Numbered from the stretch's first letter, positions 47,458 to 59,662 are shown. The stretch: 64,000 nucleotides of DNA from a virus (IMGVR_UViG_3300019378_000009:32001-96000); one strand, 5' to 3'. Numbers and translations: made by a program. Notes: generated by a model from the letters alone, not told the origin.

Positions 47458-48498
47458 TTAGAAATAATCTTCTTCACTCGAACTATTGGTAGAAAAATCA
47501 GCATCTTCAAACAAATCACTCAAGTCAACGTCCTCAGCCGCAAGCTGTGCGTCCAAGTCGCGATTCGCCGCAATAGCGTTGTCATTAATCAAATCTTCCA
47601 AAGATACTTCCGCAAACGCTTCTTCATTTGCATTTTCTTCTACCTTTTGCGCATAGGATTTAGAAATACTTTCAAGTGTCGCCGCAAGCCCAGTACAGTC
47701 TTGCACAAGCACCCTAATATATTCCTTAAAGTCCGCAATAGTTTTATCTACTACGTCTCTTTCTACGCCATCATAATACTTAAACTGTCCGCCACATTGT
47801 TCGATATAATCTCCCAAGTCGCTGACCGTCGAAATAACGTCTTTGTTGCTACTCTGAATTACGTCATCAATTTGCGCAGTTTTAGTAAATGTACTATATG
47901 CGCTCGTCAAATCTTTAATTCCTTTTGCGTCGCCCGCAAGTATAGCTTGGTCCAACTGAATGGAAATTCTAGCTGCTTTTTTAATTGCATCAATTTGAAG
48001 GGGATTGGTTATATCTCCGGCGCGCAATGTGCTTACCAATAGACTATCCAATTGCACATATTCCTCAAAGGAATATTCTCCGCCCCATTTTATTTTCGCT
48101 CGCCGCATGAATTGCTCCTTTACTGGTTCAATTCCTGCAAGCAGCTCCGCAAACGTATTACAACGCTCCCATTCCGCATTAACTTCAGTCCACAGGTCTT
48201 TGGTACGTCCCTCTGCCCACATTACTGGGGTAGCAGGATTTTCATCAGCCCATAACTCCATGTAGGCGGCAAAAATGGTTTTGTTGCTTCCTAAACGCTC
48301 TTGTAGTTCGGTCCATTTGTCTGGCTTAAAGGGGATATTATAGGTGCGGCAAAAAAAGTTTGCCTGTTCGAGATTTTTCGGGTTAATTTGCTTTACTAAA
48401 CAATCCAAGCAAGCGCTACCACTAATTGGATTATTTGTAGGCAATATTTCGGTTAGTTTGCCACAAAGGGCACATTTTCCAATCTTTAAAATACTCAT
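47458..48498 (-). CDS. Zn-finger protein upstream of terL (candidate small terminase)
   Basis: CALC...CLDC. SD AAAGGAGA supports ATG at 48498, shorter than the ORF-track call. Confidence 0.55.
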   Translation of the reverse strand: MSILKIGKCALCGKLTEILPTNNPISGSACLDCLVKQINPKNLEQANFFCRTYNIPFKPDKWTELQERLGSNKTIFAAYMELWADENPATPVMWAEGRTKDLWTEVNAEWERCNTFAELLAGIEPVKEQFMRRAKIKWGGEYSFEEYVQLDSLLVSTLRAGDITNPLQIDAIKKAARISIQLDQAILAGDAKGIKDLTSAYSTFTKTAQIDDVIQSSNKDVISTVSDLGDYIEQCGGQFKYYDGVERDVVDKTIADFKEYIRVLVQDCTGLAATLESISKSYAQKVEENANEEAFAEVSLEDLINDNAIAANRDLDAQLAAEDVDLSDLFEDADFSTNSSSEEDYF

Positions 48499-48522
48499 AG
48501 TCTTTCTATCTCCTTTATATAT

Positions 48523-48551
48523 ATTATACTCCATTTTACCCAAAAAGTCAA
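48523..48551 (-). promoter_or_regulatory. sigmaA promoter of the packaging/head operon
   Basis: Minus strand TTGACT-N17-TATAAT. Confidence 0.75.
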
Positions 48552-48923
48552 TTCTGGAGAATAGGTAATTTGGAAATAGAAATGCAGAATGGATTTAAGA
48601 ATGTTGGAATTGGATTTTGGTTACATGTTGAGATTGGATTTTTCGTTTCATACGATCTTTTTTCCACAACAGGCCCGGGTTGTTCATAATTTCGTAATAT
48701 TTGTCTAACACTCCCCCCCCGTCGTTATGCACAAAAAAAGAGCATACCCGGGCATACTTTTGTGCATATTGCCTAAAGTTTGTTAAAATTTTAACATTAT
48801 TCATATTTGATGCTTTTGTGCATATTGTACAAAAAATTTATTCTTTTTTCTACATAGAAAGTATTGACAAAGATAAAAATATATGGTAAAATAGGGTAGA
48901 AAATAAATCAAGGAGCTTTTCAA

Positions 48924-49328
48924 ATGGATACATTAATACTTGCAAAAATCGACCGTTTTTATGCAAATAACGGACAAGAGGCGGAGCGAGTTTTCCGCTA
49001 CACTTACACGGGCAAGCTTACAAAAGCCGATAACATTAAGCACACCGACGGCGCCGACTGCGACGACATTCAAATCAAGAGCGCGAGAGCAAGCGTCTGC
49101 AAGGGCACAGATATCAATGCATATCTCTCAAATGACAAAGCAAGCCGTTTTGCTTATGTTGTCAAGGATATGAGCATAGCCTACATAATGACAAAGGCAC
49201 TATATATTGAGTTTGTAAATGCTTTCGCTACAATCACAACTGAGAGCGCAAAAAACGGTGGTGCTACAAAGTTAAGGCTTAAAAGCGAAAGCAAGGCGAT
49301 GCTTCAATGGTTAGCGGAGAGGGTGTAA
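48924..49328 (+). CDS. putative PD-(D/E)XK-like nuclease
   Basis: NNGQEAE...GAD...IQIK motif; own promoter and SD; similar to 50433-50915 with the halves in reversed order. Confidence 0.55.
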   Translation: MDTLILAKIDRFYANNGQEAERVFRYTYTGKLTKADNIKHTDGADCDDIQIKSARASVCKGTDINAYLSNDKASRFAYVVKDMSIAYIMTKALYIEFVNAFATITTESAKNGGATKLRLKSESKAMLQWLAERV

Positions 49329-49481
49329 ACCCTCTCCCTTTTGCATTGTTGAAATTTAACGAGCGCGTCCGGGCGCGACCCGGTAACTTGCACAAAAAGT
49401 TGGGGTGCACGCAGTATAAATTTGTGCAAAATTTTTGAGGAAGAGGATTGACTTTTTCAGTGATTTGTGGTATAATATAAG

Positions 49482-49572
49482 TGTCAAGGGGCGAGGGAAA
49501 CCCAAGTTGCAACAGGGTAGTGAACGGAACTTGAAAAAAATTTTTGAAAAATTTTTCAAAAACCCCTTGACA
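49482..49572 (+). ncRNA. ORF-less unit bounded by inverted repeats (candidate sRNA) A
   Basis: Starts just after TATAAT; TGTCAAGGGG...CCCCTTGACA; no SD/ATG ORF. Confidence 0.45.
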
Positions 49573-49599
49573 AATCCACGAAAGTGTGGTATAATATAA

Positions 49600-49857
49600 G
49601 TGTAAGAGGGAAGGACAACAAACTGTACTTGCACCACCGTCACCAAGAGTGTGAGAGCGGAGTGCAAGAGGGGAGAAGTCACCTTGCAAGGCTTCCCTTT
49701 CACAACCGAGGTAATGAGGTCACTCTCCGCAGACTCGCAAAGCCATAAGAGGTGGGAACGCAAGTTGTTCTGTAAGACGAGCCCTCGGTATAGAAATCAG
49801 TAGACCAAAGACAACACTCAACCCTTGAAAGAGTGTGTGGACGGAGCGAGGGTATAT
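49600..49857 (+). ncRNA. structured non-coding RNA / tRNA leader
   Basis: Promoter at 49567, no credible ORF, GC-rich stems (CTTGCAC/GTGCAAG, ACCGAGG/CCTCGGT, ACACTC/GAGTGT). Confidence 0.5.
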
Positions 49858-49962
49858 GAGAGGGTAGCTCAAGGGTAGAGCGGCATCCTGCTAAGATGCG
49901 GCAGACGAGGTCAGTGCACGGACTAGTCCACTGTATGGGTTCGAATCCCATCCCTTTCACCA
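49858..49962 (+). tRNA. atypical tRNA, anticodon GCT (Ser-reading), 35-nt variable region, encoded CCA
   Basis: Acceptor GAGAGGG/CCCTTTC-A-CCA; D arm GCTC-AAGGGTA-GAGC; anticodon arm GCATC-CTGCTAA-GATGC; T arm ATGGG-TTCGAAT-CCCAT. Confidence 0.85.
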
Positions 49963-50090
49963 TAAAGACTTGGCGCGGCCGGTGTCGCGCCGGGCCGCCC
50001 GGGCTGCCGAAAATTTTTTCAGCTTTTTCGCAAAAACACTTGACAAACAAATAGTTTTGTGGTATAATATATACAGAAATAAAGAATGAG

Positions 50091-50282
50091 GTGTCTATTA
50101 TGAAACACGTGGCTTACAATCTTGTCACTCACGAAGTACTTTTTTCCAATCATTCCAATGCTTTAAAGCGCAGAGTTACCCAAATAGAACGTTGGAATAT
50201 AGCTAATGGTTATGGCAAGGGCAAATGGATATTCGCCCACGGCAAGCAGTGTGAATATAAAATTGCTGCCAAGCTCCACTAA
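50091..50282 (+). CDS. hypothetical cassette protein
   Basis: Own promoter at 50040 and GAGG SD (start at 50091 or 50100). Confidence 0.65.
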   Translation: MSIMKHVAYNLVTHEVLFSNHSNALKRRVTQIERWNIANGYGKGKWIFAHGKQCEYKIAAKLH

Positions 50283-50432
50283 AAAGGAGCTAGCGCCCGG
50301 GCGGCCGACTGGGATTGTTAAATTTTTCACAAACAAGCAAGTGGGAAAATTTTAAAAAATTTTTAAAAAAGAGCTTGACAAATCAAAGCTTTTGTGATAT
50401 AATATACTTGTAAGAAAGAGAGGATACAACCA

Positions 50433-50915
50433 ATGTATAGACTTGATAGAATGAGAAAACAATACGAACAATTCACTGCCGCAGAGGGTTACATCATCGG
50501 CTTCCGTGATGGCGACAAGGTGTATGCGGTAGACCTTGATAAAATACCTCGCAGATACACCAGAATACAAAAGGAAAGCAAGAGCAACGGTGGTGGCTAT
50601 GGCTTGTATGTAAAAATCACCGAACCTGCTATCCTGTCCGAGCTACTGCCGAAAGCCTACTATGTATGCGAGCTTGCCGACCTCATAGACAATGACGGAC
50701 ACCTCAACGGCAAGGGCGAACTCAAACACTTTAACAAAGGTGTTATGTTTGAAAAGAAAATATGGGAACTCAACGGTATGGAGTTCAGGGGCAAGGACAG
50801 TGTAAGATTTTACGAAAGTGGTGATATTACCATTGACGGAAAAGAAATACAAATTAAGTTTGAATGGGCAAGAATTTGTTATGACCGCACACTAAAAAGA
50901 CTGACCGCCAAATAA
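50433..50915 (+). CDS. putative PD-(D/E)XK-like nuclease (circularly permuted relative to 48924)
   Basis: NKGVMFE...SGDITIDGKEIQIK near the C-terminus; own promoter and SD. Confidence 0.6.
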   Translation: MYRLDRMRKQYEQFTAAEGYIIGFRDGDKVYAVDLDKIPRRYTRIQKESKSNGGGYGLYVKITEPAILSELLPKAYYVCELADLIDNDGHLNGKGELKHFNKGVMFEKKIWELNGMEFRGKDSVRFYESGDITIDGKEIQIKFEWARICYDRTLKRLTAK

Positions 50916-51020
50916 GGCGGCCGGTCCCGGCCCGGGCGGCCGTTCATAATTTATTTACATTTGAGGGGTTGACTTTTCCCTCTCGGTGTGATATAATATA
51001 TAGAAAGTGAGGACACGAAT

Positions 51021-51164
51021 ATGTTGCAAAAGAATATAGAAAAACAAGAGCGAAAAAATCGCAAAACTTGGCAGGGATATTTCACTCGCAAGACACCAAC
51101 CAAGAAAGAAAAAGAAGAAAAAAATCGTAAAAAATACAAAAAAGGTATTGACAAAGACGATTGA
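51021..51164 (+). CDS. small highly basic protein (47 aa)
   Basis: Promoter at 50969, GAGG SD, MLQKNIEKQERKNRKTWQGYFTRKTPTKKEKEEKNRKKYKKGIDKDD. Confidence 0.6.
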   Translation: MLQKNIEKQERKNRKTWQGYFTRKTPTKKEKEEKNRKKYKKGIDKDD

Positions 51165-51211
51165 ATGTGTTATAATATATATGTAAGAAAAAGAAAGACG
51201 AGGTAATCAAA

Positions 51212-51466
51212 ATGGAAACCACTTACAGTGTAGAAGCAAAGTGCGATAAGACAAGCGGAATGAATGTCGAGTTCAAGGGCATTGACAATTTGGAAAGTGC
51301 GATGGCGTGTGTAACCACTCTTGAGTTGGCATTTCCAAATATCACCGTCATTTGTGAACAGACGGGCGAAATAATGTATCACCGTTTGATGTCGTTTGAG
51401 ATTTTCAATCCCAGTATGGAAATGGGTAAGGCAATCTTCAAGGCAGAGTGTGATATGTACTTTTAA
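51212..51466 (+). CDS. hypothetical cassette protein
   Basis: Promoter at 51148, GAGGT SD, downstream hairpin. Confidence 0.7.
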   Translation: METTYSVEAKCDKTSGMNVEFKGIDNLESAMACVTTLELAFPNITVICEQTGEIMYHRLMSFEIFNPSMEMGKAIFKAECDMYF

Positions 51467-51644
51467 AGGACAAGGCGCGAATCGGTAGTTATATCGGTTC
51501 GCGCCAAACACATTCTTCTCGGTTAGCATATGCTAACTCGTGCCCGGGCGCTTTGTGCACTTTGTACATATTTGGGGCGAAAACTTTTTTATTTTTGTGT
51601 AATTTGACGATTGACTTTTCACTCATTATATGATATAATATTAG

Positions 51645-51745
51645 TGTCAAGAGGGGAAGGGGTATAAACGGTCGCCACTTGCAAGCCTTCCATTGATAAA
51701 GGTGCCGAAAAATTTTTTGAAAAATTTTTCAAAAACCTCTTGACA
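51645..51745 (+). ncRNA. ORF-less unit bounded by inverted repeats (candidate sRNA) B
   Basis: TGTCAAGAGG...CCTCTTGACA following the promoter at 51611. Confidence 0.45.
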
Positions 51746-51773
51746 AACCATAAGTTTTGTGGTATAATATAAA

Positions 51774-51886
51774 TGTCAAGGGGCGGTGTTAAGCAACCGA
51801 GAAGGACACACATAAGCGCAATCGTGTTTGATGAAGTCGGGACTGCCGAAAAAATTTTTGAAAAACTTTTCAAAAACCCCTTGACA
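51774..51886 (+). ncRNA. ORF-less unit bounded by inverted repeats (candidate sRNA) C
   Basis: TGTCAAGGGG...CCCCTTGACA following the promoter at 51740. Confidence 0.45.
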
Positions 51887-51968
51887 AATCACCAAAAGTG
51901 TGATATAATATAAATGTAAATAAGGAGAGCCGACACTCCATTAACAAACGGAGAAAAGGAAGAAAAAT

Positions 51969-52298
51969 ATGGCAACTATCGCATTTATCAACGAAAACGG
52001 AAATGTATCGGCAAAGGTTCGTGAGCGTCTTAAGTCGCAGACTATGACCGCTATCACAAAGGCTATGGACAAGTGCAACCTTGAAACCATAGTCAATGCA
52101 GACAAGGGCTTGTCTATCCCTCTCGGCACTGACAAGACCAACGGTAACCCCATTTACGCACACATCTCGGTTGTGATTTCACAACACAACCCTGCGGAAA
52201 AGACCGCAAAGACCAAGACCAAGACCAAGAAAAAGGTCGCAGACGAGGTCGCTCTCCCCGACATTTTCGGGGCAGTAGACGAGGGTGAGGGAGAGTAA
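51969..52298 (+). CDS. hypothetical protein, paralog family B
   Basis: Paralog of 60154-60504 (F.NE.GNVSAK.R...VNAD.GLSI...LPDIF); Lys-rich tail. Confidence 0.75.
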   Translation: MATIAFINENGNVSAKVRERLKSQTMTAITKAMDKCNLETIVNADKGLSIPLGTDKTNGNPIYAHISVVISQHNPAEKTAKTKTKTKKKVADEVALPDIFGAVDEGEGE

Positions 52299-52443
52299 TC
52301 TCCCTCTCACAAACACCTGTCCGCCATTGGCGGACGGCGCCCGGGCGGCCGGAATTGTGAACAAATTGTTAACTTTTATAAAACTATTGACAAATCAAAA
52401 CAAATGCGATATAATATTAGTGTAAGAAAGAGAGGAAAACAAT

Positions 52444-52683
52444 ATGACAATTAAAGAGTTGCCACTTATTTATAATGTTGATAAGGTTGTAGTGTATAAT
52501 AAAAGAGGTCTTGTATCTTCCTTTTGGAGAAACTCACAATTTAGTCTTGCCGAGCAAGTCGAATATAACCGCACACAGTTAATCGGTGCAGAAAATGTTC
52601 TTAATGAAAAAATTGAGTCAATGAGTATTGGTGTATCGGGTATTGCCGACAATGTGATAACTTTAGAAATTTATTTAAAATAA
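52444..52683 (+). CDS. hypothetical cassette protein
   Basis: Promoter at 52387, GAGG SD. Confidence 0.7.
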   Translation: MTIKELPLIYNVDKVVVYNKRGLVSSFWRNSQFSLAEQVEYNRTQLIGAENVLNEKIESMSIGVSGIADNVITLEIYLK

Positions 52684-52755
52684 ATTTTCCAAAACCCCTT
52701 GACAAATCGGTTTGTTTGTGATATAATATAGGTGTAAGAAAGAGAGGTAACAACT

Positions 52756-53004
52756 ATGATTTCAAGAAAAGAAGCCGAAAGAACTACTGATGCATACTAC
52801 GAGGTTGAAAGAGTACTTGGAGAGGTTGACGATATGATGCTCACCAAAGAAGAAATCTATGCAAGATTTCCGTGTGATTGCGATGGAGTGCCATACATCA
52901 CCATCTCCGCTTTTGAAAATGCTCTCCGCAACCTAATGCATATGCGACACATAGACAGTGTATGCGTAAGGGGTGTTCGCCACTACGGAGCCGTCAGAAG
53001 ATGA
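52756..53004 (+). CDS. small winged-helix-like protein
   Basis: LTKEEIY...ITISAFENALRNL......G...Y; promoter at 52699. Confidence 0.6.
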   Translation: MISRKEAERTTDAYYEVERVLGEVDDMMLTKEEIYARFPCDCDGVPYITISAFENALRNLMHMRHIDSVCVRGVRHYGAVRR

Positions 53005-53141
53005 CGGCTTGGCGGCCCGGGCGCTTTGTGCACTTTGTACACTTTTCCCCGAAAAATTAGTGCATTTTTGTGCAACTTGCCATATTGACAAATGCGGAAA
53101 AATGTGATATAATTATAGTACCAAAGGAAAGAGAGGAACAT

Positions 53142-53594
53142 ATGATGCTTGGAAACACCATTCTTGCACTCAACGACATCAAGGAACTTGAAGTCAAAAT
53201 CTCCGACACCAAGAACGGAGAATGTATCCACCAAACCCAACGAAACGGCATAGGTGCGAAACTCCGTGAAGCACTTGCCAACGATTTCTTGCAGATTTTT
53301 CCCTACTCGGAAAATGCAGAGGACATCGTGGCTTATGTAACGGACGACGGGCTTGTGCTTGAAATTCCCAACCAAAGCGTCAAAGACGGCATTTCCAATG
53401 TGAACGGCAGTGGCGCAATCACTGTGGAACTCGGCTTTACGGTTAAGAACTTGGAATACAATGCACAAGACGAAAGCGAAAGCCACAAGGTCAAGGTTGC
53501 CGAAAAAGAAGCCAAAGCAAAGGAACTTGCCGAAAAGAAGGCAAAGAAAATTGCGAAAGACAATGCGGCTCGCAAGAAGGCAAAGGGAGAGTAA
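53142..53594 (+). CDS. hypothetical protein, paralog family A
   Basis: Paralog of 56707 and 61200 (DG..LE.PN.SV.D.I.N..GSGAI..E..FT.K.LEYNA.D); SD-supported ATG at 53142. Confidence 0.8.
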   Translation: MMLGNTILALNDIKELEVKISDTKNGECIHQTQRNGIGAKLREALANDFLQIFPYSENAEDIVAYVTDDGLVLEIPNQSVKDGISNVNGSGAITVELGFTVKNLEYNAQDESESHKVKVAEKEAKAKELAEKKAKKIAKDNAARKKAKGE

Positions 53595-53734
53595 TCTCCC
53601 TCGCCAAGCCGACCAAATGTAAAGTTTGGTTGGCGCGGCGCCCGGGCCGTTCATAATTTATTTACAATTTAGGTATTGACAAGTCAGTTATTTTATGATA
53701 TAATATATACATCAAGAGAAAGAAGGATAATAAT

Positions 53735-53983
53735 ATGAAATTTCAGCAAATCAGTAGAAGCAAAAGACACGCCAAATTTTATGACGCTTGCACAGGGGAA
53801 ATCTTTTTCGCAAAAGGTTTCACTTATATGAAAACCGATGATAATGATATGGTTAATGCCGTTCAATTAGACGGTATTGAGAGGGGAGAATTAACATTCT
53901 TTGAAGAAGGTGAAGATATTGACATTCTCAAAAGCGAAGTCGTTATCAACTACGAAGCAAACGAGGTGTTGTCGTGGATTTAA
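53735..53983 (+). CDS. hypothetical cassette protein
   Basis: Promoter at 53676, AAGGA SD. Confidence 0.7.
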   Translation: MKFQQISRSKRHAKFYDACTGEIFFAKGFTYMKTDDNDMVNAVQLDGIERGELTFFEEGEDIDILKSEVVINYEANEVLSWI

Positions 53984-54105
53984 CGGAATGCCAACTTTTG
54001 TTGGCACGCCCGGGCGGACGTTCACAAATTGTTTACAATTTGGATATTGACAAATCGTTTTATTTGTGATATAATATATACACAAGGAAAAAGGAGATAA
54101 ACAAA

Positions 54106-54408
54106 ATGAAAGTAAATCTTATGGTAAATTGGGAAGAAAAGGAAATTCTCACTGTCCAGGAACTTGACGAACGCATTGATGCGAGAGTTGACAAGGTGAT
54201 GCTGGACGCCGATGCTTATGACGAGCATCTTGATGACTATATTGACTGTAACTATACCAAGAGAGAACTCTTTGATGCTTTGTCTGGTAGCGATGCAGAG
54301 AGAGAAAGGGTACTTTCCGACATTCGTTCAGGAGTTGGCGAGAGCATTTACGATTGGGTGAATATGGATATCAGTGGCAATTTCCACGATGTAACCATAG
54401 AGGTCTAA
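54106..54408 (+). CDS. acidic hypothetical cassette protein
   Basis: Promoter at 54047, AAGGAG SD; D/E-rich. Confidence 0.7.
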   Translation: MKVNLMVNWEEKEILTVQELDERIDARVDKVMLDADAYDEHLDDYIDCNYTKRELFDALSGSDAERERVLSDIRSGVGESIYDWVNMDISGNFHDVTIEV

Positions 54409-54603
54409 CAAACAAGGCGCGAACTCAAAAAGTTGGGTTCGCGCTTTCTACATAAAATAGATTGTTAAATATTTAACAAGGGCGTGCCCGGGCGGTTCAT
54501 CGTTTTGCACAAAATGAAGTGTCAAACAAATAAAAACTTTGTGCAATATTACTACTTGACTTTCTCATTATTTTATGGTATAATTAGTATGTAAGAAAGA
54601 GAG

Positions 54604-54888
54604 GTGATTGTTATATTACTTGCAACAATGTGGAACTCAATCAAAGATATATTTCAACCGATATACTGTAAGACTTGTAAGTCAAAGCATTACGCGACAA
54701 TCGGTTTCATATGGCACTTATGGAGAAAACACGGTATCAAAATCACAAGGCGAGATTTTAAGTTTTTGGCAAAGTATAACTTAATAACAAGGTTAGTTGT
54801 CGGTGTGTTGTGTGCCGTGTTCTTTGTTCCATTGCTCGTGTTAAAGTTTATCTTGCTTCCGTTGTATTACTTATACAAAATTTTATAA
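54604..54888 (+). CDS. C2H2-like Zn finger plus transmembrane segment
   Basis: CKTC...HLWRKH followed by a hydrophobic C-terminus. Confidence 0.6.
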   Translation: MIVILLATMWNSIKDIFQPIYCKTCKSKHYATIGFIWHLWRKHGIKITRRDFKFLAKYNLITRLVVGVLCAVFFVPLLVLKFILLPLYYLYKIL

Positions 54889-54901
54889 AGGAGAATAAAA
54901 A

Positions 54902-55114
54902 ATGATTACAGTAGAAGTTACCGCAGAAGTCTTATATACTTGCGAACTCACCGCAGAGGACGAAGAAAAGGTAAAGGCATTTGCCGAAGAAAATGATGTT
55001 GAGTTGGCGGTTGCCGTTGGGGAACTCTATTCAGTAGGAGAAATCAATTTATACAAAAATTCCGTTGAAAGCGATTTCAGTACCGAAAGAATTGATGACG
55101 CATACGAAGAGTGA
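54902..55114 (+). CDS. very acidic small protein
   Basis: AAGGAG SD; E/D-rich. Confidence 0.7.
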   Translation: MITVEVTAEVLYTCELTAEDEEKVKAFAEENDVELAVAVGELYSVGEINLYKNSVESDFSTERIDDAYEE

Positions 55115-55266
55115 GTTAGCATATGCTAACTCGCCCGGGCGCATTGTGCATACTGCACAACATATAAGGCGCGGATTGTAAAAAGTTTGTGTATATTGCC
55201 ATATTGACTTTTGGTTTATTATATGATATAATAAGAATGTAAAAAGGAAGAAACGAGGTAAACAAA

Positions 55267-55764
55267 ATGAATTGGTTTGAATTTTCTTTGAGCGGTTTCC
55301 TTGCCGTATTTATCGTGCTTAATATTGTCAATGTAATTATCCAAACTGTCAAGTCTATTGCTACTATCAAGTGCAGTGCTTGGGCGGCAGCAGGTGTTAA
55401 TGCACTTGCCTATGGTTTATATACCATCGTGGTGGTATATATGAACGCAGACGGACTTGGTCTGTTTTGGAAAGCAATAATTATAGGTGTTGCCAACTTG
55501 CTCGGTGTGTATGTTGTCAAAGTTATTGAGCAGAAGAAAAGAAAAGATAAACTTTGGAAAGTTGAAGCAACCGTTGACCGCACCTCTATTACTCGCTTGG
55601 ATAATAACCTTGACGAAGCACACATACCCCATAACTATGTAGTTGCAGGCAAATACGGAATTTTTAATTGCTACTGTGCAACCCAAAAGGAAAGCCTTGT
55701 AGTAAAAGAAATTTTGGATATGTATGGTGCAAAATATTTTGCAAGTGAGAGTAAACCCCTCTAA
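55267..55764 (+). CDS. membrane protein (UPF0316/DUF5698-like)
   Basis: Three hydrophobic helices followed by a soluble C-terminal domain. Confidence 0.6.
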   Translation: MNWFEFSLSGFLAVFIVLNIVNVIIQTVKSIATIKCSAWAAAGVNALAYGLYTIVVVYMNADGLGLFWKAIIIGVANLLGVYVVKVIEQKKRKDKLWKVEATVDRTSITRLDNNLDEAHIPHNYVVAGKYGIFNCYCATQKESLVVKEILDMYGAKYFASESKPL

Positions 55765-55908
55765 ACGAGGGGCTAGCGCCCGGGCGGTTCGTCATTTTGC
55801 ACAATAAACAAATAAGAAATTAAAAAATGTTTGTGCAATATGCCATATTGACTTTTCCATTTGTTTGTGATATAATATATATGTAAGTGAAAGAAAGGAA
55901 CCACTCCA

Positions 55909-56550
55909 ATGATAGTAATTATGTTTGACACCGAAACCACCAACGAAATTGATTGCCCTTTTTGTTACGATTTTGGCTTCTCCGTCCTCGACACCGACAA
56001 GCAAAAAATTCTTGAAAAGCACTCCTATGTTGTAGCAGATATTTTTTGCGACAAATCGCTTATGGCTTCCGCCTATTTTGCAGATAAGATACCGCAATAT
56101 TGGGAAGATATTAAAAGCGGAAAAAGAATGCTCCGCAAATGGTCAACCATTAAAGCAATAGTCAGAGAGGTAATGGCACAATATAACATTGATACCGTAA
56201 TTGCCCATAATGCTCGCTTTGACTACTGTTCAACCGCCACTACGCAAAGATACCTCACCTACTCTAAATACAGATACTTTTTCCCTTATGGCACGAAATT
56301 TGTTTGCACTCTCAAAATGTCAAGAGAGGTATTTGGTAAAGACGAAAATTATATTGCTTTTTGCGAAGAAAATAATTACCTCACCACCTATAACAAACCT
56401 CGCTTTACTGCCGAAATAATTTACCGCTTTCTCACCAACAACACCGATTTTGTTGAAAGCCATACGGGGCTTGAAGATGTGGAAATTGAAACGGAAATTT
56501 ATCTTGAATGTATAAAGAGAATGCCCTCGGTTGACGGACTGCTTTGGTAA
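55909..56550 (+). CDS. DEDDh-family 3'-5' exonuclease
   Basis: FDTETT, AHNARFD, HTGLED. Confidence 0.85.
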   Translation: MIVIMFDTETTNEIDCPFCYDFGFSVLDTDKQKILEKHSYVVADIFCDKSLMASAYFADKIPQYWEDIKSGKRMLRKWSTIKAIVREVMAQYNIDTVIAHNARFDYCSTATTQRYLTYSKYRYFFPYGTKFVCTLKMSREVFGKDENYIAFCEENNYLTTYNKPRFTAEIIYRFLTNNTDFVESHTGLEDVEIETEIYLECIKRMPSVDGLLW

Positions 56551-56706
56551 GTGGTCCGCCAATGGCGGACAGCGCCCGGGCGTTTGTGCACCTTGCACAA
56601 AAACACCGCCCAAAACTTACAAAAATTTGTGCAATATGCCATATTGACTTTTACCCAATTATGTGGTATAATAAGTATGTAAGAAAGAGAAAGAGAGGTA
56701 ACAACT

Positions 56707-57180
56707 ATGCCCAACTTTATTAACACCAACACCGCCCTCAATGCCCTTAAAGGTACTACCGTTAAGGTAAGTCAGACCAAGAATGGCGAGGCTATCCACC
56801 AGACTATGCGAAATAAAATCGGTGCGGTACTGCGTGAGGCTCTTTTTGCAGACCTTAAAGAGATTTTCCCCACCTCTACCAACCCCGAAGATATCGTAGC
56901 ATACCTCACCGCAGACGGAATTATTCTCGAGATTCCTAACGAGAGTGTAAAAGACACTATCACCAATGTAAACGGTAGCGGTGCAATAAGCCTTGAAATC
57001 GGCTTTACTGTTAAAAATCTTGAATACAACGCACAGGACAGTGCAGAGGCATACGAGGTAGACAGAGCCGAAAAAGAGGCGAAAGCCAAAGCCAAAGAAG
57101 AGGCAAAGGCGAAGAAAATCGCCAAAGACGAGGCAGACCGCAAAGCCAAAGCCAAAGCAAAGGCGGAAAAGGGGGCATAG
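56707..57180 (+). CDS. hypothetical protein, paralog family A
   Basis: Close paralog of 53142; K/A/E-rich tail. Confidence 0.8.
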   Translation: MPNFINTNTALNALKGTTVKVSQTKNGEAIHQTMRNKIGAVLREALFADLKEIFPTSTNPEDIVAYLTADGIILEIPNESVKDTITNVNGSGAISLEIGFTVKNLEYNAQDSAEAYEVDRAEKEAKAKAKEEAKAKKIAKDEADRKAKAKAKAEKGA

Positions 57181-57333
57181 TCCCTCTTTTCTTTTGCGGA
57201 AGATTGTTAAAAATTTAACAAGCCGGCCCGGGCCGCGTTCATAAAAAATTCATAAATAAATTTTGAAAAAACTATTGACAAATTGACTTGTTTATGATAT
57301 AATATATACACAAAGGAAAAGGGAGAAAAGAAA

Positions 57334-57651
57334 ATGATTGAAAAAGAATTTGACTTAACCACTCTCACAGATGAAGAACTTGCCGATTTTCATACGGCAT
57401 GGGTAAACGAAGCAAAACGAAGAGATAAACAACGCAGACGAAATGCCGCATTGCTCTTATACGAGGCGGTAGGTCAATTCATTGACACTATGGCGCACTA
57501 TGACTTTGTAAAGTTGGTATCAATGGAGTTTGTCAATGAAGAGGGCGAGGATTGTGAGTTTGATATCAATGTTTTCGGTGAAGAGGTACTTACCAACATT
57601 CGTGAAACTTTGCGGTTAGAGATAGGTCAGTATAGCGGAGAGGACGAGTAA
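57334..57651 (+). CDS. acidic hypothetical cassette protein
   Basis: Promoter at 57275, GGGAG SD. Confidence 0.7.
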   Translation: MIEKEFDLTTLTDEELADFHTAWVNEAKRRDKQRRRNAALLLYEAVGQFIDTMAHYDFVKLVSMEFVNEEGEDCEFDINVFGEEVLTNIRETLRLEIGQYSGEDE

Positions 57652-57818
57652 TCGTCCTTTTCGGCATTTAATTTGTGGCAAAAGTTCTGCCCGGGCATTC
57701 GTCATTTTGCACAAAAATCAGTTCGCGCGGTGTGAAAAGTTTGTGCATTTTGACTATTGACTTTTTACTGATTATGTGGTATAATATGTATGTAAGTAAG
57801 AGAGAGGAGAACATCAAA

Positions 57819-57974
57819 ATGACTTGCCATTATACCGTCAAAGACCTTATTGAATATCTTGAAACCTTACCCAAAGATACCGAACTTAAAATTGAGAGAG
57901 CAAGCGGCAATCTCACGGACGGCTTCGACCTTGAATACGAGGACGGCAACCTTATCCTCTGCAATGCTTATTAA
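57819..57974 (+). CDS. small hypothetical protein
   Basis: GAGGAG SD, ATG at 57819; TVKDLIEYLETLPKD motif common in small phage proteins. Confidence 0.65.
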   Translation: MTCHYTVKDLIEYLETLPKDTELKIERASGNLTDGFDLEYEDGNLILCNAY

Positions 57975-57990
57975 AGAAGGGAGAACGAAA

Positions 57991-58194
57991 ATGATGTATG
58001 TATATCTTGTTTATGAAGAGTGCCACGGTTTGGTAATGGTCTGTGGCTCTGAAATGGGAGCAATCAACAAGGTTAATAGCCTCGCCCCTAACTATGGCAT
58101 TGACCCCGAAACAACACCGCTTGACTATAACTCCCATCACCATTATGGTTGGGAAGGTGCGGTATATTTTGTGAAAGAGGTGGTATTTGACTAA
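57991..58194 (+). CDS. small hypothetical protein
   Basis: GGGAG SD, ATG at 57991 (MMYVYLVYEE...). Confidence 0.6.
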   Translation: MMYVYLVYEECHGLVMVCGSEMGAINKVNSLAPNYGIDPETTPLDYNSHHHYGWEGAVYFVKEVVFD

Positions 58195-58433
58195 TGATAG
58201 TAACAAAATATGAACATCTAATAGACGGCTCTGAATATGACGAAGAAGATGTCAGAGATGTCGCGGCGGAACATATCACGTGGGATAACTTGAACGAGGC
58301 GTTAGACGATTTTGATTTTCATTGGTTGTGGCAACATTTAACCCAAGAGGGACAAATGGAACTATATGACAAAGCAATTGAAACCTACCAAGAAGAATAT
58401 TTTTCCGCCATTGAAGTAGAAGAGGACGAGTAA
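58194..58433 (+). CDS. very acidic small protein
   Basis: TAATG coupling to the previous gene; D/E-rich. Confidence 0.65.
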   Translation: MIVTKYEHLIDGSEYDEEDVRDVAAEHITWDNLNEALDDFDFHWLWQHLTQEGQMELYDKAIETYQEEYFSAIEVEEDE

Positions 58434-58921
58434 ATCGTCCTTTTTCTTTTATCAAAATACAAAAGATAATCCATGGCAGAAATCGTGCCCGGGCTAACAT
58501 GCGCCCGGGCCGCAAATTTGAACAAATCAAGTCTATTTTATTAACAAATTGTAAACTTTTCAATCAGAAGCAACACCTCCCTTCCACAGCTGTACACCGG
58601 ATATCCCATTACCGTTACATGCCTCCCGAGTAATAAACCACCGGTAATAAGCAGCTATAAGCAGCAGCAGCACCACCTGTCCTTTGCCCATAAGCAGCAG
58701 CACAAATTTGACATAATTATTCAAATCCACGAAAAAGCAGCTACAAGAAGCTGCAAAAATTTGAATTTTTATACGATTTATGATATAATATTTATAGAAA
58801 AAGAGGAAAAACAAGAAAAAATTACAAGCATTTCTGGAATATTTACGCATCGCCGCAGTAGGTGATAAAATAATGAATATGTAGATCTGGATATAATTAT
58901 TACGAAAGGGGAAGCAAGAGA

Positions 58922-59167
58922 GTGAAAAATCTGAAAGAGTGGTTTGAAGAGCAGAGTCTATGGATATGCATACTAGGCATTGTAATCTGTCTAATAGTTT
59001 TAGCAGGTTGCATCTTTGGTTGCGCAGCTGTTTTTATGCTGTTGTGGAACTATGCAATAGTTGCAGCGCTGACTATAGCTATGCCTATTGGTTACTGGCA
59101 CGCAGTGTGTATGGTAATTATACCGGCGTTCATATGTTTGCCTGTTGTACGTAAAAATATAAAATAA
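58922..59167 (+). CDS. small membrane protein
   Basis: Hydrophobic; LLWNYA...IGYWHA motif; terminator at ~59182-59210. Confidence 0.6.
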   Translation: MKNLKEWFEEQSLWICILGIVICLIVLAGCIFGCAAVFMLLWNYAIVAALTIAMPIGYWHAVCMVIIPAFICLPVVRKNIK

Positions 59168-59662
59168 GCAGTAGCAGCAGCAAGAGAGGGCTAGTTCCCT
59201 CTCTTTTTTTTGTTGCGGCGACGGGCGTAAATTTGATTTTATTTGTCAAAAGCAGGAGCAGCAGAAAAACAGGCCCACACGTTTTCTTGCTTTTCGCCGC
59301 AAACTGTGATATAATATTAGTACAGAAGCAGGAAAACAAGAGAGAAGAAATTGCTACCAAATTGCATGCGGAAAATTTTTGTTGGATACTTGTTCAGAAC
59401 AGAGAATTTCCATCATAAATTGCCGTTATTTTGGTGATTTTTTGGACGCTTTTTAAAGGTTATGGCTTCTCTTTTTCCAACCTGTTGTTTGCGGGCAAGG
59501 ATGCTCTGGCGCAAAATTGACTTTAAAATTCAAATTTGTGCTCGACAGCATTTTTCGCCGCAAACAATCTACACAAAGCCAAAAATACATTCAGCCGCAC
59601 ATTTGCTTTTTCCCGCAATCTATGATATAATTATTATAGAAAAGAGGAAAGGAAAAAGAATA

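Follow-up and report, generated by a model that had tools for sequence, protein, structure and literature searches.

The PeSL (promoter-early stem-loop) elements of T4-type phages are composite terminator/promoter cassettes (Arbiol et al. 2010, PMC2839356; Comeau et al. 2014, PMC4122927). A different kind of repeat, the 15-bp SPBRE of SPbeta, occurs at about ten intergenic or promoter regions and is bound by the master repressor MrpR/YopR (PMC10516654). Here we describe an array of small genes in the viral genome IMGVR_UViG_3300019378_000009 (109,428 bp), of which bases 32001-96000 form the window, i.e., the stretch of 64,000 nt that was analyzed and to which coordinates refer. The element in question is the octamer GCCCGGGC, present 16 times in 49997-58510, whereas 0.10 copies are expected from dinucleotide shuffles and none of 100 shuffles reached 16. 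All copies are intergenic and lie within one 8.5-kb array, and the complete genome contains no copy beyond these 16. In the literature library searched, no paper ties GCCCGGGC to phage biology; two contain both terms, but neither deals with an element of this kind. We consider it fairly probable that the octamers mark composite terminator/promoter junctions of the PeSL kind, in which the octamer is the preferred short-homology crossover point, and that these junctions are the Firmicutes-phage counterpart of PeSLs.

The PeSLs are the closest known system, and all of their functional features that could be tested were found in the array. The promoters are strong, of the sigma-70 type and preceded by an A/T-rich region; the motif contains a stem-loop, which here lies upstream of the A/T tract, unlike in most PeSL subclasses; and the motif is repeated in a hyperplastic region of small ORFan genes. 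Close relatives differ by motif-bounded indels or replacements (the locus pairs L025/L030, L005/L008 and L040/L041, and the contig X15 record 11, see below), and, as with PeSLs, each mobile gene carries its own promoter and terminator. A further hallmark of PeSLs is excised mini-circles that carry one chimeric motif; for the array, the material covered was assembled contigs. The two systems differ in phage lineage and host type. The 1309-aa DNA polymerase has its nearest cultured relatives in SPbeta-like Bacillus phages (39% identity) and not in T4-like myoviruses, so the array works like PeSLs but falls outside the T4-family element set. Furthermore, the center of the module is taken by an 8-bp palindrome made up entirely of G+C, which is invariant, distinct from the variable hairpin and swapped lineage-wide for GGCCGGCC, and the hairpins come from a common stock of different palindromic words. 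Such an invariant palindromic core with lineage-specific alternatives is new relative to PeSL.

A junction consists, in this order, of a stop codon, a left (L) hairpin, GCCCGGGC, often a right (R) hairpin, an A/T tract, the -35 and -10 boxes, a Shine-Dalgarno sequence and a start codon (Table 1). In the window, L is a near-perfect palindrome or hairpin that ends 0-8 nt upstream of the octamer, and at some junctions it is preceded by a canonical terminator with the stop codon in the terminator loop. The second hairpin R1 reads TTGTGCA..TGCACAA. The 18 promoters of the array are all on the + strand and match TTGACA-17-TATAAT in 11-12 of the 12 positions; most also have a TG extension, and A/T tracts are present upstream of -35. 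Four of them (51148, 51740, 51881 and 52699) have neither an octamer upstream nor an L hairpin, which indicates that the octamer goes with the 3' hairpin and not with the promoter. The canonical terminator pattern, a G+C-rich hairpin followed by at least 5 T, was found at just three intergenic + strand sites of the array (57171, 57636 and 58419). Hairpins adjoining the octamer are followed by 0-4 T and then GCCCGGGC, and do not qualify as canonical intrinsic terminators. In RNA folding, the octamer at some sites formed part of mini-hairpins of 4-6 bp that have CCGG as the loop, but no consistent partner emerged.

An earlier note on this DNA, of which all coordinates and sequences were correct on recheck, had sorted the flanks into types L1-L4 and R1-R4 and read their pairings as a crossover signature. 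These pairings drew on eight junctions; six further junctions carry unique L flanks. The 40-nt flanks were scored by local alignment, and a shuffled null (99th percentile 10-11, maximum 12-13) gave the level expected by chance. On the left, the families L1 (51542/55133, score 18), L2 (52339/56574, 16) and L4 (54486/57226, 20) stand out, whereas L3 (GCTAGC, 12) only reaches the null maximum. On the right, R1, R2 and R3 are above chance, whereas R4 (12) again lies at the null maximum. Scores are 17-25 for R2 (50930/53640/54008) and 15-19 for R3 (54486/55778/57689); for R1 they are 22 between 51542 and 53015, weaker (13) with 56574 and just 9-10 with 55133.

The proposed reassortment of left and right flanks was borne out. 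Their similarities are uncorrelated (Spearman -0.06), and none of the three L-similar pairs is also R-similar. Homology does switch partner at the octamer, as an octamer-anchored comparison shows tracts stopping or starting at its edge: the L2 pair is identical from -20 to the right edge of the octamer and unrelated further right, and the R1 and R3 pairs are identical rightward from the octamer and unrelated leftward. This independence extends to related phages. With ten related loci added to the window, 21 junction pairs are L-similar and 64 are R-similar, but only 5 are similar on both sides. What did not hold is that the window pattern alone amounts to a crossover signature. The shared tracts measure 17-28 bp and are bounded on both sides, the L words being preceded by unrelated 3' gene ends and R1 being followed by unrelated sequence; they are short motif islands and not long recombinant tracts.

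The octamer is conserved in many relatives. With the exonuclease-like gene 55909-56550, 80 related IMG/VR loci (±10 kb, L numbers) were retrieved, and many of these have the octamer in the same hairpin-octamer-promoter context, with up to 14 copies per 20 kb. Fifteen whole related genomes (G numbers) contain 2-30 octamers each, and these totals equal the ±10-kb locus counts wherever the two were compared. Where coordinates were listed (G003, G005, G008, G009, G011 and G014), there is one cluster per genome, for instance with 30 copies spread over 19 kb in a genome of 180 kb, and a reversed control word has 0-1 copies in related genomes. Of 133 oriented octamers, 78 (59%) have a perfect hairpin of at least 6 bp in the preceding 36 nt, compared with about 8% of random 36-mers. 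At these 133 sites hairpin and octamer are mostly 0-8 nt apart, the positions from -4 to -1 are rich in T, and the octamer is bordered by Y at -1 and R at +1. In distant phages the hairpins on either side of the octamer include (A)GTTAG..CTAAC(T), TTGTTAA..TTAACAA, ACTTTA..TAAAGT and CGAAC-N4-GTTCG. More distant lineages have GGCCGGCC (10-16 copies) in the position of the octamer, including the terminal double site, and one lineage mixes RCCCGGGY forms. An IMG/VR search for relatives via the array gene g50433 gave none, a JGI metagenome scan gave just 7 short loci, one of them octamer-bearing, and the 30-octamer genome G014, when used to look for relatives, found only itself.

In comparisons of close relatives, long tracts of homology often broke off precisely at the octamer. 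L025, about 91-95% identical to L030, lacks a 1.8-kb segment that in L030 has GCCCGGGCGC on both sides, and the junction is exact. Homology between L005 and L008 ends inside the octamer, and the replacement between L040 and L041 extends from the octamer (+18 nt) to a degenerate aCCCGGGC. L039, L042 and L045 have the exonuclease cassette in common from the octamer rightward, with unrelated hairpins and genes leftward. Relatives of the window array itself were found among assembled Logan metagenome contigs. One 920-nt contig from bovine gut (X15 record 11, about 96.5% identical) joins 52336 to 53014, by which the two cassettes between the octamers at 52339 and 53015 are gone and an L2-R1 junction is created. 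In another run (X18), homology ends at 54015, the last base of octamer 8, and resumes at 55789, 3 nt past octamer 11. Of 152 non-redundant ends of high-scoring segment pairs inside arrays, 14 lie no more than 3 bp from the outer edge of an octamer. Randomly relocated octamers (2000 trials) gave a mean of 1.3 and a maximum of 6 such ends, and promoter edges, which are equally ubiquitous, gave 3.

The earlier suggestion that the octamer is the exchange point thus stands in the form of a preferred homology boundary or short-homology hotspot, and is not supported in the form of a dedicated crossover site, given the scatter of break points, the lack of a detected recombinase and an unsupported nuclease candidate. 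Break points do scatter away from the core in part, and many ends lie elsewhere in the junction. Some are in the A/T tract upstream of -35 (50360; position 1991 of L025 compared with L030, 12 nt right of the octamer), others in or after promoters (52717, 57312 and 51659), and homology ends also cluster at -20 to -40 and +33 to +58 relative to the octamer. Contig joints between promoter regions with short sides of 20-34 nt were disregarded as repeat artefacts.

These observations suggest the following scenario. The region would be a hyperplastic array of early, host-takeover-type genes of a large gut Firmicutes phage, in which composite junction modules connect cassettes of one to three genes, and every cassette brings a consensus sigma-70 promoter. 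L would be tied to the 3'-end side and R to the promoter side, and because both are drawn from a small clade-wide palindromic vocabulary they would assort independently. Cassettes may be gained, lost and replaced via recombination within the shared junction motifs, with the octamer as the single most used crossover or annealing point and the hairpin foot, A/T tract and promoter also being used. The octamer would be favored because it is the sole invariant all-G+C stretch and hence the best annealing nucleus in an A+T-rich spacer. Exchange is then presumably driven by homology or microhomology and not targeted by an enzyme. In addition, the exact conservation and the lineage-wide switch to GGCCGGCC suggest that the octamer has a sequence-specific role as well, in which it would most likely be bound by a dimeric protein.

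No part of large phage genomes changes faster or is less well understood than the early host-takeover genes. A simple signature for searches, namely an 8-bp G+C palindrome that is confined to one array and has a hairpin on one side and a consensus promoter on the other, delimits cassettes across a clade of gut and rumen Firmicutes phages, and cassette turnover is focused on it. The PeSL concept would extend beyond T4-type phages, and mobile early genes, including candidate anti-defence and takeover factors, could be enumerated. It also raises the question whether the lineage-specific palindrome is read by a protein.

Several points weigh against a short-homology crossover point. In two runs a break lies at 55112, at the left foot of the L1 hairpin and not at the octamer, and the independent exchange events are few, about 8-10, from few lineages. 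BLAST extension can snap nearby break points onto conserved islands, although the promoter control argues that snapping accounts for only part of the excess. Because an exchange that leaves L and R intact has to lie in the few bases separating them, selection on viable products could also place break points at the octamer without a mechanistic role. Exact conservation of the 8-mer across phages with 40-65%-identical proteins, together with its lineage-wide replacement, exceeds what passive microhomology needs. Finally, no RecA (PF00154), RecT (PF03837) or ERF (PF04404) match was found in the complete genome.

A possible but rather doubtful alternative is that the octamer is purely regulatory or structural, either as the operator of a dimeric phage or host protein or as a G+C clamp aiding hairpin terminators with short U tracts, and has no part in exchange. 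The independence of L and R would then reflect two separate functional modules flanking the octamer, in agreement with the doubly bounded islands of the window. The palindrome is perfect and exactly conserved, with weakly symmetric flanks (Y at -1, R at +1); it follows closely on a hairpin and a T-rich stretch, it forms a strong hairpin between convergent units when doubled, and its switch to GGCCGGCC is concerted, all of which speaks for such a site. The distance to -35, on the other hand, is 20-80 nt (median 44) with no phasing, unlike that of a classical operator, and in other close lineages, which share the promoter arrays, the hairpins run straight into the A/T tract and no G+C palindrome is present, so the octamer is dispensable for basic promoter and terminator function. 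The base-exact octamer-to-octamer indels and the 10-fold excess of homology ends would need an extra explanation. CCGG is mildly under-represented genome-wide (0.63), which does not discriminate between the readings.

Repeats that serve as protein sites are known from other phages. Mycobacteriophage stoperators (the L5 gp71 sites) and the conserved inverted repeats of phiC31 are short sites present in many copies in early intergenic spaces, often near terminators, of temperate phages with an identified repressor. The array shares with them the many copies of one short site in short early intergenic spaces; it differs in that no repressor was identified and that the octamer is a palindrome, whereas stoperators lack symmetry and depend on orientation. 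Among repeats read by a protein, SPBRE with MrpR is the nearest precedent. Like the octamer, it is a short conserved motif repeated intergenically in a large Firmicutes phage, it shows that such repeats can be the sites of one phage protein, and it is a repressor site in the very group to which the polymerase points (PMC10516654). However, SPBRE is located at promoters of a temperate phage, whereas the octamer is an 8-bp palindrome that overlaps no promoter, varies in promoter distance and is confined to a single array. Membership is not supported. The genome has no homologue of SPbeta YopR/MrpR at E <= 0.1 and no integrase-fold match, but an unrelated binding protein may exist.

It is improbable that the octamer is the target of a dedicated enzyme, i.e., an integron-like site-specific recombinase or a homing-like endonuclease with repair from a co-infecting genome, which would make cassette exchange an encoded function. 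Junctions precise to the base, homology ends that are more frequent at the octamer than at other conserved junction motifs, and lineage-specific palindromes, as expected for co-evolving specificity, would fit such an enzyme. The array also resembles an integron in its tandem single-gene cassettes, in the variable imperfect palindromes beside a short conserved core, and in gain and loss at that core. However, the complete genome has no IntI-type integrase, as family searches gave neither a tyrosine (PF00589) nor a serine (PF00239) recombinase, with PF00589 controls positive in 14 of 14 genomes, and every cassette comes with a promoter, whereas integron cassettes are mostly promoterless and depend on a common Pc. 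For these two reasons the array is not an integron. Its hairpins are also shorter (15-25 bp compared with 57-141-bp attC sites), its core is a perfect palindrome, and many break points lie outside the core. C5 (PF00145) and N4/N6 (PF01555) methyltransferases were not found in the complete genome either. A palindromic core lacks polarity, yet just one inverted homology tract was seen inside arrays (103 bp, L029 compared with L074).

Candidates for such an enzyme are g48924 (48924-49328) and g50433 (50433-50915), located around the array head and with an invariant E..D..E-x-Q-x-K pattern that is compatible with a PD-(D/E)XK site. For g50433 there are 294 metagenome homologues, some 91-99% identical, with E107, D131, E138, Q140 and K142 invariant. 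Its AlphaFold model (predicted local distance difference test, pLDDT, 93) has no Foldseek match in the PDB at E <= 0.001, and the best match in a wide search had Z 2.0, in a HamA region. BLASTP between g48924 and g50433 gave E 0.036 over 15 residues, with the D..IQIK segment alone in common. With no PDB fold match for the g50433 model and this E value between the proteins, assignment of the two as PD-(D/E)XK nucleases is possible but unsupported. The g48924 family is restricted to octamer-bearing genomes (7 of 16, compared with 0 of 15 others), but is absent from the complete octamer-rich genomes G004, G005, G009 and G014, and the closest g50433 homologue (L038, 57%) is in an octamer-free locus. 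We see only a slim chance that an unrecognised enzyme or DNA-binding protein of the phage has GCCCGGGC, or GGCCGGCC in sister lineages, as its site and actively promotes the exchange of cassettes between co-infecting phages; if so, the array would be a promoter-carrying, integrase-free analogue of an integron that diversifies host-takeover genes, with the fast-evolving g48924 and g50433 as first candidates.

Table 1. Octamers and junction elements of the cassette array (window coordinates; ORF, open reading frame).
Feature	Coordinates	Strand	Left flank	Right flank	Promoter	Remarks
Early-gene cassette array (putative)	49997..58510	+				~19 small ORFs, 18 consensus sigma-70 promoters, 16 GCCCGGGC
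Octamer 1	49997..50004		GC hairpin 49972-49991	A/T tract	50040-50068	follows tRNA-like gene
Octamer 2	50295..50302		L3 (GCTAGC, weak)	R4 (GGCCG.., weak)	50375-50403	
Octamer 3	50930..50937		unique hairpin CCGCC..GGCGG	R2 (GTTCATAATTTATTTACA)	50969-50997	
Octamer 4	51542..51549		L1 (GTTAGCATATGCTAACTC, 51522-51539)	R1 (GCTTTGTGCACTTTGTACA)	51611-51639	promoter of ORF-less unit
Octamer 5	52339..52346		L2 (GTCCGCCATTGGCGGAC, 52319-52335)	R4	52387-52415	left end of bovine-gut deletion
Octamer 6	53015..53022		unique hairpin GCCGTCA..TGACGGC	R1	53085-53113	right end of bovine-gut deletion
Octamer 7	53640..53647		unique hairpin CCAACCAAA..TTTGGTTGG	R2	53676-53704	
Octamer 8	54008..54015		unique hairpin TGCCAAC..GTTGGCA	R2	54047-54075	end of X18 homology
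Octamer 9	54486..54493		L4 (TTGTTAAATATTTAACAA, 54462-54479)	R3 (GGTTCATCGTTTTGCACAA)	54556-54584	
Octamer 10	55133..55140		L1 (55115-55132)	R1-like hairpin TTGTGCATACTGCACAA	55204-55232	
Octamer 11	55778..55785		hairpin CCCCTC..GAGGGG and GCTAGC (L3)	R3	55848-55876	promoter of exonuclease-like gene 55909-56550
Octamer 12	56574..56581		L2 (56554-56570)	R1 (GTTTGTGCACCTTGCACAAA)	56644-56672	promoter of gene 56707-57180
Octamer 13	57226..57233		L4 (57204-57221)	weak R2-like	57275-57303	
Octamer 14	57689..57696		no adjoining hairpin; canonical terminator 57636-57663, 26 nt upstream	R3	57757-57785	
Octamers 15 and 16	58487..58510					starts 58487 and 58503, with 8 nt between the two octamers; array end, facing convergent - strand gene; together a perfect 8-bp G+C stem

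The cassette genes are ORFans with high turnover. Scans with Pfam and PHROGs, each of 10 ORFs and together of 11 array ORFs, gave no match, and tblastn against the 80 related loci gave no match for 14 of 20 ORFs (19 from the array plus g48924 upstream; one query was out of frame). Elsewhere the phage encodes topoisomerase II subunits, a DnaB-like helicase, a RecJ-like exonuclease and a portal protein. Its promoters and ribosome-binding sites are of Gram-positive style, one g50433 homologue came from a Ruminococcus-labelled metagenome-assembled genome, and the DNA occurs in metagenomes of animal faeces and bovine gut. The host is probably a Ruminococcus-type Firmicute. Among INPHARED phages, megablast gave no match to the region.

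Two cassettes, with the genes 53142-53594 and 56707-57180, encode paralogs of 68% identity whose tails are rich in lysine and alanine. The duplication begins at the octamer and R1 leader and stops before the downstream hairpin, i.e., the R1 leader is common and the flanking hairpins differ. Directly upstream of octamer 1 lies a tRNA-like gene (49858-49959; Rfam tRNA, 56 bits, E 3.7e-10) with a GCT anticodon loop and a very long variable region, for which ARAGORN made no call; it was the only Rfam match in 48000-59500. Within 51611-51960 there are three successive consensus promoters (51611, 51740 and 51881), and the first two each drive an ORF-less unit of about 60-90 nt that ends in ..TGCCGAAAAATTTTTT. 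These units may be small RNAs, and a similar gene-less promoter unit is present in L041.

The hairpin word CGAAC-N4-GTTCG, which corresponds to the Gram-positive LexA (Cheo) box consensus, has 81 copies in some 1.3 Mb from related loci, where about 1 would be expected, and 14 of these are in L039. It is mostly the hairpin beside the octamer (L039, L036, L045, L042, L010, L046, L026 and L047) and has no copy in the window array. The sequences CCGATCGG, GCGGCCGC and GGCGCGCC are enriched in some loci as well, but mostly within genes or at transcript starts, and were rejected as the same element.

In several phages the array is closed by a pair of palindromes 8-20 nt apart (window 58487-58510; L010 14350-14379; L026 12741-12776; L042 11824-11852; L047 14379-14412, with GGCCGGCC). 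The pair folds into a perfect 8-bp G+C hairpin that faces a convergent gene or a leftward promoter, and is probably a bidirectional terminator or insulator. The exonuclease cassette is located 0.1-5 kb from a contig end in 17 loci (L008, L009, L012, L015, L017, L021, L024, L025, L030, L033, L035, L038, L048, L058, L062, L063 and L075); the array is either a frequent break point of assemblies or next to the true end of the genome. One sample contributed several contigs of about 190-197 kb that may be concatemers. In L061 and its relatives (L057-L073) the palindrome is used differently, as GGCCGGCC directly follows the -10 box and opens a GGCCG..CGGCC 5' stem-loop of the transcript.

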